In this document: positions 9,468 to 17,438 of the stretch, in pieces
Layout: each line of letters starts with the position of its first letter
Numbering within the stretch: position 1 is the stretch's first letter
DNA from: a virus
Taxonomy: Duplodnaviria; Heunggongvirae; Uroviricota; Caudoviricetes
Reading direction: 5' to 3' (one strand)
Virus record (IMG/VR): IMGVR_UViG_3300045988_024768
Location: 1-20,162 of that record
Length of the DNA stretch: 20,162 bases
The notes under the pieces: generated by a model
What the model was told of the DNA's origin: nothing
The model's input: only the letters and a program-made list of their open reading frames with translations
Database searches by the model: none
Position numbers and translations under genes: made by a program

Positions 9468-12274
9468 TGCCAGTCGTACCAACAGTATCCGGACGCCAGG
9501 TTGAGAGCCGTGGAGTTCAGTCAGCAGGCTTGCAGACGTTTTCTCAGCAAGGTATTGGTGATGCTTTTGTTCTGGCAGGGACAGAGGCAATTGATGTTTT
9601 GGGGCAGGCAAAACAGCGTGCCAATATCGCTCTGGCTCAGGAGGCATCTCTTAACCTCAGTCAGATAAGCAGCGATCTGCTGAATAATCCTGAAACAGGA
9701 TTGCTTAACCTGAAAGGGAAAAATGCTATTGGAAAAGGCCATGAGTATACGCAGCAGTTTGATGCTCAGGTCGAACAACTGGCTATGTCGCTGCCGGATG
9801 AACAGGCTCGTAATGCTTTCATGCAGCAGGCGCAGCAGCAGCGCATTCAGTTCACTACGCAGGCCGGGCGACACGAGATAGGGCAAATTAATGCCTACGA
9901 AGAAGGTCAGTTTCAGGCGACGCTGCTGAACAATGGTAAAAATGCCGCAGCATTGTATGGCGACAACGCCGCATACGTATTGGCTAACAAGCAAACTTTC
10001 CAGCAAATTGAGGAGTACGGTGTTGCACATGGCTGGAGCAACGAGCAAATCCAGGCCAAGAAAATCGAGTTTAAAGAGAAGGTTGCTGATGCTGCATTGT
10101 CCCAGTGGTCGGCAAACAATGCGATCTCATTTATCCAAAGTAATGGCGAGCTAAGCGATACTGCTGCTGGATCAAAGCGGGCTATTGTTAATCCTTATGG
10201 TGGAGAGCCAAAGTCCACAAAGGGAATGGTTGTTCAAGGAAATATTAATCTCTTCAACCGCCCATCTGTCAAAAATGAAGATGGGACTATCAGTACCGTT
10301 CGAACAATTTCTATAGGCACGGAAGCTGGAGAAGTTCTCATTCCCACCGTCAGTGATGATGGAAAATTGCTTTCCGATGACGAAGCTATTGCTCTGTATG
10401 AAAAAACTGGAAAACACCTTGGAATATTCGATAACCCTGAGAATGCGACCGCCTATGCTGAGAAACTTCACGAACAGCAGGATCAGTATTACGTAAAAGG
10501 TGGTGCTCGCGGTATCCGTAATAACAACCCAGGAAATCTCGAATACAGCAAAACTAATCCGTGGGTAGGCCAGACCGGTGATGATGGTCGATTTGCTAAA
10601 TTCGAAACACCTGAACACGGGATTCGTGCATTAGGGCGGAACCTGATGTCGTATCAGCGGCAGGGTATTGATACAGTCAGCGAGATAATTAATCGCTGGG
10701 CACCGCCTACTGATAAAAATGACACTATGTCATATATCAAAGCAGTGTGCGAACAACTTGGCGTTTCTGCTGATGAGCCTCTCGATGCATCTAATCCTGA
10801 TACCCTGAAGGCGCTTTGTGCAGCCATTATCCATCATGAGAACGGTAGCCAGCCATACAGTGATCAGCAGTTAACTGCTGGTGTCAGTGCAGCACTTGGT
10901 TTATCAACAATTCCAACCAACACCAAACGCTATACCGGTAATGCAGCATTCGATGCGGCATCTCCTGAGGCGCAGGCAAGTTTTATGCGACAGGCGGATC
11001 AACTGCTTCGGCAGCAGCAGGCTGAATATAAAACGATGATTGACAGCCAGGTTCGCGATGCGACAGCTGCATATATGCGTGGCGTTGAATTTCCTAACCC
11101 ACCTGGTGAGGCTGATTTTATTGCAGCTTATGGAGTAAGAGAAGGAAACCTGCGATATACCGAGTTCAGAAATACGCAAATCGCCGGACAGTATATAGGC
11201 TCTTTCCGCAACATGCCGACAAGCAGCATTACAGCATATGTTGAGCAATTACGCCCGGATACTGGTGATACAGGGGAGGGCTATGCGGCACGAGCAGCTC
11301 TTTATGACAACGTTGTTTCGGCTGCAAATCAGGTGATAAAGCAGCGGCAGTCGGATCCTGTGCAGTTCTCTCTTGCCTCCGGACAGGCAAAGCCTATCGA
11401 CATGAGCAATAAGGATAACTTTGGACAGAGCGTTGCCTTGCGTGCCGCTCAGGTCAGTGACCTTGCTAAGTCATATGGCACTCCACTGACGTTCTTTTCC
11501 AAAGACGAGGCCAATCAGATCGGTGTTTTCTTTCGTGATGCTCCAGTTTCCCAACAGGCAGCATATCTCGATACCATCAGGCAGAGCACTGGTGGTGGGC
11601 AGGTGTATATGTCAGCACTACAGCAGATCAGTGCCAACGCTCCATCTGCTGCCGTTGCCGGGATACTGATGGATAAGCCAGGTGGTATTTTGGCAGAAAA
11701 AAACTGGTTTAATCCGGATGTTTCCGTGTCTCCTGAAACCGCTGCGCAGACAATTCTTGCTGGCGCGGCGGCTCGTAAAGGTACTGATGATGCGAAAGGT
11801 ATTCCGATGCCTAAAGATGCTGATCTTCGCCTTGAGTTTTCTGACATGGTGAAGGATGCATTTGCTGGTGACGCTCAGGGGGCATCAATGGCATACGAGA
11901 TCGCAAAGGATTATTACGCTGGTGTGATGGCGAAAAAAGGCGTGGTATCAGGCGAAATTGACAATGATGTCTGGAAACAGGCTGTTAACGTAGCTACAGG
12001 TGGCGTGCATGACTATAACGGAATGGGGAATGTCCTTTTGCCGTGGGGAATGTCTGCAGAGCAATTCGATAAGCAGGTTAATCAGGCTTGGAATGAACAA
12101 GTTGTCGGCTCCGGGATAAAAACACCGCCTGGTCAGTATGGTTTGCAAAGTTACGGCGATAGTCAGTACCTGGTGAAACTTGGTACTGGTTATCTGCTGA
12201 AAGATGATGGTTCTCCCGTTGTTCTTAATCTGACACAGAAGCGTCAGAGATTCTCCGGAGATATTCCGCAATGA
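9467..12274 (+). CDS. Large internal/ejection protein with putative peptidoglycan-hydrolase-like region (935 aa from ATG 9467)
   Basis: GGAGG 6 nt upstream of ATG 9467, which overlaps the upstream stop (TAATG). The 9392 start in the ORF track is rejected. Contains [16 protein letters not shown]...RWAPP, a block I associate with virion-associated cell-wall hydrolase domains. Confidence 0.6.
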
Positions 12275-14078: not shown

Positions 14079-16553
14079 ATGAGACAGGAATGTATACAAG
14101 CGGTCCAGCAGGCGGCGCAGCGCACGTTAACGGCGCGAGAAATACAGAACATTGAAGACCGCATTTATCGAAATATGCGCTCCATTGCTCGTGATGACCC
14201 GATGTCGTGGCGACAACTTTCCGAATCAGAGCGGCTGTATCGTGCAGCACAATTGGCATCTGAAGAATTACAGCGAGAAGCGGCATTAAAGAAACGTCGT
14301 GTGGCCCTCACTATAGCCGCACGTCAGAGATTGGATAAATTTATCAATAGCTATCAAGGGGCTGATGGGAAACTTGGCGCTCTTAACCGTACTATTGCTT
14401 TTAATGCAGACGGTAAATCGAATTTCCTCTCTGTTGAATCCAGAACAAAAGCCACCCGTGATTATGCATTGAGTCAATTGCAAGAGGCATTTGAAGCAGT
14501 TGATCCTCGCTTTTTTGGCCTGTTTGAAGATGAAGCTGGCGTGCGTGACCTGGTATATGAAATACGAGGGCAAAATACTGGCAATGCTAAAGCAAGAAAA
14601 GGTGCTAAGGCGTGGAGAGAAGTTACAGAGCTGCTGCGCCGCCGGTTTAATGATGCTGGTGGGGACATTGGCTATCTCGAAAACTGGGGGATCCCTCAAC
14701 ATCATTCTATGGAAAAGGTTGGGGCGGTATCAAAAGATAAATGGGTTAGCGATGTTATAGGTAAGCTGGATCGCAAATATTATACCCGAGCCGATGGACA
14801 ACTGATGAACGATGCCGAGTTGTCTGCATTTCTTGGAGAGGCTTATAACACGATCGCTACTGGTGGGCTGAATAAGCTTACTGATACCGGAATGCGAATT
14901 TCCGGCGCACGTGCTAACCGTGGTAATGCATCACGACAGATACATTTCAAAGATGCAGATTCCTATCTGCAATATCAGCAACTTTATGGCGATCGCTCTC
15001 TATGGGAAATCATGGTCGGTCACCTGGAAGGTATCAGTAAAGATATTGCACTGGTGGAAACATATGGCCCAAACCCCGATCATGTTTTCCGCTCTCTTCT
15101 TGATCAGGTGAAGGCAGAAACGGCAACAGCTAACCCGAGTAAAACCGGTAAAGTCGAGCGGCTGGCGAACAACACAGAGAATCTGTACAACTTTATTTCC
15201 GGAAAGACACAGCCTGTAGCGAATCCGCATATCGCGCGATGGTCTGACAATATCCGCAACTGGCTGGTTGCCAGCAGACTCGGATCCGCGTTGCTGTCAT
15301 CGTTCTCTGATCTTGGAACCATGTATCTGTCTGCGAAGGTTACCAACCTTCCAATGAACCAGTTATTCCGCAACCAGCTTGAAGCTATGGACCCAACGAA
15401 CCGTACAGAACTTGCGCGGGCGCGCCGCGCTGGTCTGGCGATGGAATCTCTACTTGGCAGCGTTAACCGCTGGGCGATGGATAATATGGGGCCGTCTGTG
15501 TCTCGTTGGGCTGCAACGGCGGTAATGCGTGCCAGTGGGCTTACAGCATGGTCAGATGCGCACAAGCGCGCCTATGGCGTAACCATGATGGGAAGCCTGG
15601 GAGAAGTAGTGTCACGGACACCAGACCTTCGTAGCCTCGATTACTCTGATTTTCGTATCCTGAAAAGCAAAGGGATTACTGACACAGACTGGAGCGTATG
15701 GAAGCTGGCGCAACAGGAGGACTGGGGTAACGGTAATAATACGATGCTGACACCGGAAAGCATTATGCGTATCCCTGATTCAGCAGTTAAACATCTTGGT
15801 GAGCCTGAACGTGTGAAATTTGAGGCAATGCGTAAACTGCTCGGGGCGGTGACCGAAGAAGTGGATATGGCGGTCATCACTCCTGGCGCACGTGAGCAAC
15901 TGATAACCGGTTCTGGTATTCAGCGTGGAACATGGAAAGGTGAATTAACGAGAAGTGTTTTCCTGTTTAAATCGTTCCCTATCTCGGTGGTTATGCGTCA
16001 CTGGTCACGCGCTATGGGGATGCCGTCTGCTGGTGGGCGTGCGGCATATATTGCGACGTTTATTGCCAGTACGACCATTCTTGGCGCTTTGTCGCAACAA
16101 CTTAACGACCTTGCGTCTGGTCGTAATCCTCGAGAGATGACAGGAGAAGATGCCGCAAAATTCTGGCTTGGTGCTCTACTGAAAGGTGGTGGTCTTGGCC
16201 TTTACGGTGACTTTTTATTGTCAGATCACACTAGGTACGGAAGCGGCGCGCTGGCGTCGATGCTTGGCCCGGTAGCTGGTCTAGTTGATGACGTAGTGAA
16301 GATTGCTCAGGGCATACCGTTAAATGCTGTGGAAGGGAAGAGTGAGCAGACTGGTGGTGATCTGGTGAAGCTGGGGAAAGGTTTGATGCCTGGTGCGAAT
16401 CTCTGGTACTTGAAGGCGGCTCTCGATCACATGATCTTTAACCAGATGCAGGAGTATTTTTCACCAGGCTATTTGCGTAAAATGGAGCAACGTTCGAAGA
16501 AAGAGTTTAACCAGACATACTGGTGGCGACCTCAGGATGTCACTCCGCAATAA
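14079..16553 (+). CDS. Internal/ejection protein (824 aa)
   Basis: GAGAGG RBS, 5-nt gap after the previous gene. Large late-operon protein between the other ejection proteins and the tailspike. Confidence 0.55.
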   Translation: MRQECIQAVQQAAQRTLTAREIQNIEDRIYRNMRSIARDDPMSWRQLSESERLYRAAQLASEELQREAALKKRRVALTIAARQRLDKFINSYQGADGKLGALNRTIAFNADGKSNFLSVESRTKATRDYALSQLQEAFEAVDPRFFGLFEDEAGVRDLVYEIRGQNTGNAKARKGAKAWREVTELLRRRFNDAGGDIGYLENWGIPQHHSMEKVGAVSKDKWVSDVIGKLDRKYYTRADGQLMNDAELSAFLGEAYNTIATGGLNKLTDTGMRISGARANRGNASRQIHFKDADSYLQYQQLYGDRSLWEIMVGHLEGISKDIALVETYGPNPDHVFRSLLDQVKAETATANPSKTGKVERLANNTENLYNFISGKTQPVANPHIARWSDNIRNWLVASRLGSALLSSFSDLGTMYLSAKVTNLPMNQLFRNQLEAMDPTNRTELARARRAGLAMESLLGSVNRWAMDNMGPSVSRWAATAVMRASGLTAWSDAHKRAYGVTMMGSLGEVVSRTPDLRSLDYSDFRILKSKGITDTDWSVWKLAQQEDWGNGNNTMLTPESIMRIPDSAVKHLGEPERVKFEAMRKLLGAVTEEVDMAVITPGAREQLITGSGIQRGTWKGELTRSVFLFKSFPISVVMRHWSRAMGMPSAGGRAAYIATFIASTTILGALSQQLNDLASGRNPREMTGEDAAKFWLGALLKGGGLGLYGDFLLSDHTRYGSGALASMLGPVAGLVDDVVKIAQGIPLNAVEGKSEQTGGDLVKLGKGLMPGANLWYLKAALDHMIFNQMQEYFSPGYLRKMEQRSKKEFNQTYWWRPQDVTPQ

Positions 16554-16562
16554 GGAAGTGTT

Positions 16563-16736
16563 GTGTTTTTAATTATTTTGAGTGTGATAATTTCTGGTGT
16601 ATTGTTATTTATTGACCGCTACAAATATTTTCTTAACCCTCAGACTCAAGCTATTTGCTGGTTCATCTTTGTTGTGCAGGGAGTAGTTCTTGTTGCAAGC
16701 CTTATTGAGGGGAGGCCTCTTATTTTTACTGGGTAA
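16563..16736 (+). CDS. Putative small 2-TM membrane protein (57 aa, GTG start), AT-rich
   Basis: Hand-translated; below the ORF-track size cut-off. AGGAAG lies upstream of GTG 16563. Translation VFLIILSVIISGVLLFIDRYKYFLNPQTQAICWFIFVVQGVVLVASLIEGRPLIFTG has two hydrophobic helices. AT-rich codons differ from the structural genes. Confidence 0.3.
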   Translation: MFLIILSVIISGVLLFIDRYKYFLNPQTQAICWFIFVVQGVVLVASLIEGRPLIFTG

Positions 16737-16748
16737 ATAGGTGACTAC

Positions 16749-17045
16749 ATGCAAGCTATAGGATTCATTGTTTATATCGTCGTTGGTCTTTTTCAGTTGT
16801 CAGCAATTATGGCTGGGCTTGAATCATGGTGGGGATTGCACTGGATAATTGCAGCCCCCATTGCTTTCATCGTGAGCTATATTCCATTTGTTGGAGCGAT
16901 TGTTGGTATGGTTGGCGCTGTGGATGTATGGCGGTGGGAGTGGTGGCAGGCTGGCCTTCTCTTCTTTGGTGGGATCATCTTTGCTATTGTCTGCGGTGGA
17001 ATGTCATCATTTTTCGAATGGCTATCATTCAGAAAAAGAGCGTGA
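16749..17045 (+). CDS. Small Trp-rich 3-TM membrane protein (98 aa)
   Basis: ATG with AGGTGA upstream. Three hydrophobic segments with 8 Trp at predicted interfaces and a short basic C-terminus (FRKRA). Codon usage more AT-rich than the neighbours. Confidence 0.6.
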   Translation: MQAIGFIVYIVVGLFQLSAIMAGLESWWGLHWIIAAPIAFIVSYIPFVGAIVGMVGAVDVWRWEWWQAGLLFFGGIIFAIVCGGMSSFFEWLSFRKRA

Positions 17046-17077
17046 CATGTCACAGACCGCTTTCGCGGCCTTTAAAT

Positions 17078-17335
17078 TTACCGGGTTTGTTTTCGTAATT
17101 GTTCGGCACAATAGTCGAGATGTGTTTGCAGATCCCGCATAGACATCTGTGAGCTGGTGACGTAGTTAATCAGTGCAGTCAGTTCGGCAAGTGGGCCATC
17201 GACATTAAATCCATCCTTATCGAGATCCTGGAGTAATTTCATCAAGTGCGATCCCTCCACCAGTGACCTGACGCCTCCCGGCGTGTGAATCCTTTCGGTA
17301 AATCCGTCTTCCAGTGGATAGTGATACTGCTGCAT
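17078..17335 (-). CDS. Small acidic protein (85 aa), putatively SOS-regulated; candidate antirepressor/regulatory moron
   Basis: Minus-strand ATG at 17335 with GGAG 8 nt upstream. Translation starts MQQYHYPLEDGFTERIHTPGG. A near-consensus LexA box lies 20-39 nt upstream. The longer 155-aa ORF-track version would place the box inside coding sequence. Confidence 0.6.
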   Translation of the reverse strand: MQQYHYPLEDGFTERIHTPGGVRSLVEGSHLMKLLQDLDKDGFNVDGPLAELTALINYVTSSQMSMRDLQTHLDYCAEQLRKQTR

Positions 17336-17354: not shown

Positions 17355-17374
17355 AACTGTATATTTATACAGTA
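17355..17374. promoter_or_regulatory. LexA (SOS) box AACTGTATATTTATACAGTA
   Basis: Matches the 20-nt gammaproteobacterial LexA consensus TACTGTATATATATACAGTA at 18 of 20 positions, with intact CTGT-N8-ACAG and an AT-rich spacer. Located in the promoter region of the minus-strand small gene. Confidence 0.75.
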
Positions 17375-17411
17375 GCAAATAATTTGTTTGCTATCCAGCA
17401 CGTTTTGCAAA

Positions 17412-17438
17412 TTACCCGAAAGGTAATATCTATTCGTG
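17412..17438 (+). promoter_or_regulatory. Conserved intergenic element, copy 2 (TTACCCGAAAGGTAATATCTATTCGTG)
   Basis: Same element as 176-199 with a 3-nt indel. Inverted repeat ATTACC-CGAAA-GGTAAT. About 95 nt upstream of the tailspike ATG. Confidence 0.35.

Follow-up and report, generated by a model that had tools for sequence, protein, structure and literature searches.

What does a perfect 12-nt palindrome do across the stop codon of a phage gene, at the junction of two convergent genes? The question is raised by the IMG/VR virus record IMGVR_UViG_3300045988_024768, of which positions 1 to 20,162 were analysed (20,162 nucleotides in all, hereafter the window). By megablast the window comes from the late region of a temperate podophage, a phiV10/epsilon15-like Uetakevirus, and it extends from the portal gene, by way of a gp17-like structural gene at 14079-16553, as far as the tailspike gene, whose ATG is at 17533. 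The palindrome is as follows:

17042..17053, no strand: palindrome GTGACATGTCAC (GTGAC-AT-GTCAC, 12 bp), read from the sequence; called site B below

The TGA stop of a 98-aa gene (17043-17045) lies inside it, and a minus-strand gene, ant, runs towards it from the other side. A preliminary description had reported the palindrome and its overlap with this stop, and sequence, coordinates and context were all borne out; the convergent setting was also right, with the minus-strand stop (17078-17080) 24 nt from the palindrome. We propose that the palindrome is a putative recognition site of the protein family of epsilon15 gp49 and phiV10 gp55, and that the structural operon ends at site B. The binding is what we infer from genome comparison, and we put the probability of this reading at roughly 0.55.

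By count alone the palindrome is unremarkable (4 perfect 12-nt palindromes were observed in the window vs 5.3 ± 2.2 expected from dinucleotide shuffles), and it is the comparative sequence data that show it is not chance. Six diverged genomes were compared (phiV10, epsilon15, SPC32H, Enterobacter phage Tyrion, Klebsiella phage BUCT711 and an E. coli prophage), and the exact 12-mer was at the homologous site B in all six, so the palindrome, whose function the preliminary description had made to depend on conservation, is clearly conserved. A search beyond site B, which that description had also proposed, found one or two further places in each relative genome and no second exact copy within the window, and a Uetakevirus genome holds 2-4 copies. 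Site A is directly past the terminator of terL (the large terminase gene), ahead of the stop of a minus-strand gene; site B, the window copy, is at the end of the structural operon; and site C overlaps the TGA with which the last early-right gene (gp49 in epsilon15, gp55 in phiV10) ends, just upstream of terS. Over 16 copies from the six genomes, 191 of 192 bases were identical, with flanking columns 31-75% identical and with terminator stems that differ from one another. When 72 loci were picked by Ant protein similarity alone, the exact palindrome was found downstream of ant in 63 of them, where it nearly always abuts a GGCCGC-loop-GCGGCC stem. The region around it (window 17000-17100) was matched in 245 of the 5,426 complete E. 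coli genomes. From these alignments we consider that Uetakevirus phages keep the palindrome under selection as a cis-acting DNA element, most likely as the recognition site of the gp49/gp55 protein. The GenBank annotation of epsilon15 lists repressor, IHF, RNase III and integrase sites and nothing at the palindrome positions. The literature searched does not mention the 12-mer, although it did not cover the primary papers on epsilon15 and SPC32H, in which an earlier mention is possible.

Some imperfect copies were also seen. Next to attP, where the lysis operon ends, the TGA of the Rz spanin gene is overlapped by degenerate copies, GTGACATGTCAT (SPC32H 26696) and GTGACATGGCAT (epsilon15 26618), which may be a decayed fourth site. 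A copy with one mismatch, GTGACATGGCAC, at 2230-2241 lies within a Bbp19-family gene, and phiV10 has the same copy at 5306; its presence is probably due to coding coincidence.

It was site C that drew attention to gp49 and gp55, which are 112-aa proteins of phrog_536. No Pfam or NCBIfam family was found for them, and the family forms about 160 clusters at 50% identity. Its gene is outside the window; in the closest relative it lies upstream of the window start by approximately 3.5 kb. Homologues of gp49 occur in unrelated phages, and the motif travels along with them. We retrieved 25 loci from 25 bacterial species by two peptide patterns within the gp49-family protein, and in 21 of them the first base of GTGAC-NN-GTCAC is exactly 1 nt ahead of the TGA that ends the gp49-family gene. 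The arms are constant and the centre varies (AT, AC, CT or GC, and once AG in a copy further downstream), and what follows the motif is also variable: a terminator 11-30 nt away, a LexA-box promoter, or terS directly. In the Pectobacterium myovirus ZF40 the exact palindrome is 2 nt past the gp49-family stop and two more copies are found elsewhere; N15 and phiKO2 have GTGACTGGTCAC and a P2-like Yersinia phage has TGTGACGCGTCACA over this stop, and the stop-site copy of Pantoea AH07 has one mismatch. Homologues of gp03, the gene next to site A, had no palindrome in other phages.

The AlphaFold model of gp49, made from a 55-sequence alignment, has a ribbon-helix-helix (RHH) fold at a predicted local distance difference test score (pLDDT) of 91.6, and its top five structural neighbours include MatP, with sequence homology between the two undetectable. 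Weak sequence matches to RHH_5, RepB and YbfE are consistent with the RHH fold, and the Cys-rich C-terminal part has only a marginal likeness to TraR/YbiI zinc fingers. On this model, gp49/gp55 is predicted to be an RHH DNA-binding domain with a Cys-rich, zinc-ribbon-like tail. An RHH operator calls for a cognate RHH-fold protein encoded in the same element, and one of that predicted fold is encoded here. Conservation, recurrence and linkage to the gene of a putative DNA-binding protein lend strong support to the suggestion of the preliminary description that a protein may bind the palindrome. The operators of RHH regulators (Arc/Mnt of P22, CopG, AmrZ, ParD/TacA antitoxins) are likewise short palindromic sites with an adjacent small RHH protein gene; however, the classical ones are at the promoter of their own operon, whereas this palindrome is over the gene's stop codon, with further copies at operon ends by terminators. 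If the pairing is true, a DNA target is defined for a widespread unnamed phage protein family, and the late-operon boundaries of phiV10/epsilon15-type prophages carry an unannotated regulatory signal.

Two arrangements around the stop of gp49-family genes can be added. Yersinia P2-like prophages have extra GTGAC/GTCAC half-sites approximately 25-35 nt downstream of TGTGACGCGTCACA (1773-1830 in one retrieved locus), an arrangement that, as sequence, resembles an operator array. In several species a promoter-like sequence, TTGAC(T/G)/TTGAAA-17 nt-TACTGT, comes within 3-8 nt of the site-C palindrome on its downstream side, and a LexA box covers the -10 region (approximately 3350-3410 in three retrieved loci and approximately 380-430 in the BUCT711 locus), and it looks like an SOS-controlled gene has been inserted there between gp49 and terS.

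The palindrome in the window is directly followed by a hairpin:

17054..17071, plus strand: hairpin AGACCGC-TTTC-GCGGCCT, a degenerate version of the conserved intrinsic terminator with which the structural operon ends; the phiV10 homologue is an annotated terminator

Seven positions pair (17054-17060 with 17065-17071), with one A.C mismatch in the plus-strand RNA, so the "4-bp CCGC/GCGG hairpin" seen at first was understated. The homologous sequence of phiV10 reads CGTGACATGTCAC-AG-GGCCGCTTTCGCGGCC-TTGTTTTT, and the homologous hairpin is annotated as a terminator in both phiV10 and epsilon15, with a perfect GGCCGC-loop-GCGGCC stem and a T run. The window stem reads GACCGC in place of GGCCGC, which is a G-to-A change at 17056. 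No exact match to this stem variant was found in IMG/VR or in the 5,426 E. coli genomes, and on those sequences the change is private to this phage. Folds of both strands gave an A.C mismatch in the plus-strand RNA and a G.U pair in an intact 7-bp stem in the minus-strand RNA, so only the plus-strand hairpin is weakened. The tail of the hairpin, TTTAAATTT (17071-17079, T3A3T3), overlaps the ant stop codon; it replaces the T run because ant is fused directly to the hairpin here, as in only 6 of 63 relatives, most of which have 1-3 kb of extra minus-strand genes in between, e.g., a Bro-N antirepressor. The plus strand of the window thus has a mismatched stem with the tail UUUAAAUUU, and the minus strand an intact stem without a U tract. 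A consensus terminator scan of the window did not call the hairpin at 17054-17071. The earlier claim that no convincing intrinsic terminator separates the two genes was right in that the terminator is weakened here, by the stem mismatch and by the replaced T tract, but it overlooked that the hairpin is the homologue of an annotated phiV10/epsilon15 terminator.

In the ant direction of the hairpin a U tract was absent in every relative examined, and the palindrome follows instead. At sites A and B alike the hairpin is a canonical terminator one way, and the other way the palindrome comes within 1-4 nt without a U tract. Since the hairpin lacks a U tract in the ant direction, antisense read-through from that side is plausible from the sequence. 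As at other convergent junctions with an intrinsic terminator, the adjoining GC hairpin and T run are the standard plus-strand terminator of the late operon in the relatives, but the palindrome stands in the position at which an A tract would give a bidirectional terminator, and the window stem has a mismatch and a T3A3T3 tail. This arrangement, in which sites A and B terminate one way and the palindrome replaces the U tract the other way, suggests insulation of convergent units. In the window the palindrome and the hairpin form a constant hinge that closes the structural operon and separates it from the convergent LexA-controlled ant operon, with cargo genes to the left and SOS-operon genes to the right being freely swapped. 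The gp49-family protein would bind the 12-bp palindrome, and a dimer bound at operon ends could insulate the convergent units, e.g., as a roadblock on the U-tract-free side of the hairpin; alternatively, the bound protein could bridge palindrome sites. The variable spacing at site C is a warning not to assume a strict coupling with termination.

The left side of the palindrome is a cargo slot, which in the window holds two small genes:

16563..16736, plus strand: 57-aa open reading frame, between the gp17-like gene and the palindrome
16749..17045, plus strand: 98-aa hydrophobic cargo gene, phrog_3075, with its TGA stop inside the palindrome

The 57-aa open reading frame had no family match. 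A terminator-like hairpin, GAGGGGAGGCCTC then TTATTTTTAC, lies at 16706-16722, where it overlaps the end of this frame just before the 98-aa gene, so the two small cargo genes may be separate units. Among 118 loci with the palindrome-plus-stem block, at least 7 unrelated classes of sequence were seen in the 14 nt upstream of the palindrome and 3 classes on the downstream side, with 34 distinct pairings, and the 98-aa gene is one of the at least 7 alternatives directly upstream. The left edge of the palindrome is exactly the point where homology is lost. These counts make the palindrome-plus-stem block the fixed hinge of the cargo slot, and a true pairing of palindrome and gp49-family protein would explain the clean exchange of cargo genes in it. 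The same data can be read without any binding function: the block would be kept as a terminator region that also serves as short homology for RecET-type exchange of cargo, and the palindrome would be only the homology edge. The many flank combinations and the mosaic breakpoints exactly at the palindrome edge agree with this, as does the fact that RecT/RecE are encoded by these Uetakevirus phages. But such exchange leaves unexplained why the 12-mer recurs at sites A and C, with different terminators or none, why it overlaps gp49-family stops in unrelated phages, and why terminator stems and loops vary while the 12-mer is invariant, and we consider this explanation unlikely.

The motif could also work as RNA, with GUGACAUGUCAC at the 3′ end of the transcript, before the terminator, forming a hairpin or protein-binding motif for termination, processing or mRNA stability. 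At site A on the minus strand, and at sites B and C on the plus strand, it does come after the end of a gene and before a canonical terminator, and folds gave a 4-bp mini-hairpin beside the terminator stem. However, a 4-bp stem is marginal, and the arms stay invariant in very distant phages, without compensatory change, while the centre varies, which is the reverse of a structural RNA. Some copies are within coding regions, and a promoter or terS may follow the motif in place of a terminator. The search for a structured RNA family found no Rfam match in the window and no covariation in the arms, so this candidate was rejected, and an RNA role seems to us very unlikely.

The arms of the palindrome are those of matS, the MatP site of the E. 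coli Ter macrodomain (GTGACRNYGTCAC; 13-bp consensus GTGAC-R-N-Y-GTCAC; PMC6907758, PMC3603311). The two systems are alike in the identical 5-bp arms, in the few dispersed copies per replicon, and in a candidate binder of RHH fold with MatP as a structural neighbour. They are unlike in that the palindrome is phage-borne and 12 bp long with a 2-nt centre, whereas matS is 13 bp with RNY, and in that the candidate protein has a zinc-ribbon-like tail and no four-helix bundle or coiled coil. With its 2-nt spacer, GTGAC-AT-GTCAC does not fit the matS consensus and was rejected as a matS site. A mimic read by the host MatP, which would tie phage or prophage DNA into the chromosome organization of the host, has in its favour the shared arms and the hosts, as all phages carrying the motif or a gp49 homologue come from enterobacteria, Vibrio or Aeromonas. 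But the spacer is 2 nt and not 3, the motif travels with a phage gene, and true matS is absent from 500 Escherichia/Salmonella prophages, apparently counter-selected (PMC3603311), while the 12-mer is conserved, which argues that it is not read by MatP; we hold this explanation to be less probable again than an RNA role. A chance palindrome without function agrees with the expected palindrome count of the window, but invariance and recurrence far exceed chance, so that the comparative data refute it and leave it next to no probability. Each of these four alternatives is less consistent with the invariant arms and the gene linkage than recognition by the gp49/gp55-family protein.

Recognition by gp49/gp55 could be part of something larger, namely a MatP-like system of the phages' own and a previously undescribed way of delimiting transcription units. 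A gp49-family RHH/zinc-ribbon protein would read GTGAC-N2-GTCAC boxes at its own stop codon and at operon ends, in Uetakeviruses, in other temperate enterobacterial phages and possibly in those of Vibrio; the spacing, shifted by one base pair, would let the boxes escape the host MatP, and the protein would either bridge or insulate the boundaries or, by way of a TraR-like zinc finger, act on RNA polymerase. This wider idea is speculative, and we think it quite unlikely. If the pairing of protein and palindrome is true, it would be a natural case where a one-base change of spacing may separate a phage site from host matS/MatP.

Mycobacteriophage L5, a temperate phage, has stoperators, short conserved intergenic sites at operon boundaries that are thought to stop transcription; they lack symmetry, occur about 24-30 times per genome and bind the immunity repressor. 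The palindrome is like them in being a short conserved site in intergenic gaps at operon boundaries, but with its symmetry, its 2-4 copies per genome and a motif unlike the Rep operator it was rejected as an L5-type stoperator. It was also rejected as a Rep operator of the SPC32H/epsilon15 type, as it has no resemblance to TTACC-N5/6-GGTAA.

The right side of the palindrome holds the ant operon and its control sites:

17078..17335, minus strand: ant, 85-aa antirepressor by sequence match, homologous to SPC32H Ant, phiV10 gp24 and epsilon15 gp19
17357..17372, minus strand: LexA box CTGT-N8-ACAG in the ant promoter region, read from the sequence
17411..17427, no strand: inverted repeat ATTACC-CGAAA-GGTAAT, Rep-operator-like in sequence form, between ant and the tailspike gene

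The minus-strand gene runs from ATG 17335 to TAA 17078-17080 and has a good ribosome-binding site. Its 85-aa product matches phrog_450 and, weakly, the anti-repressor phrog_1760, and is 85.5% identical to that of the gene annotated ant in Salmonella phage SPC32H. LexA-controlled Ant proteins of the SPC32H kind have been described (Kim & Ryu 2013, as cited in the review PMC7380047), and with this precedent, the homology and the LexA box ahead of ant, the gene can still be called SOS-controlled. The repeat at 17411-17427 shares the form of the annotated repressor sites of epsilon15, e.g., 12-27 (TTACCAAAACGGTAAT) and 19895-19911. Such annotated sites stand ahead of the epsilon15 genes terS and gp3 and of its tailspike gene, which suggests a separate Rep-controlled promoter for each late segment.

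E. coli and Salmonella commonly carry prophages of the phiV10/epsilon15 type. Of the complete E. coli prophages found, the closest was 96.9% identical to the window and located at guaA. The longest palindrome of the window is a perfect 16-nt one, CAGCAGTTAACTGCTG, at 10865-10880 within a 960-aa structural gene. In the closest E. coli prophage, ISKpn26 has inserted between the holin genes and the gene for the O-antigen acyltransferase (3015-3995 of the retrieved locus).
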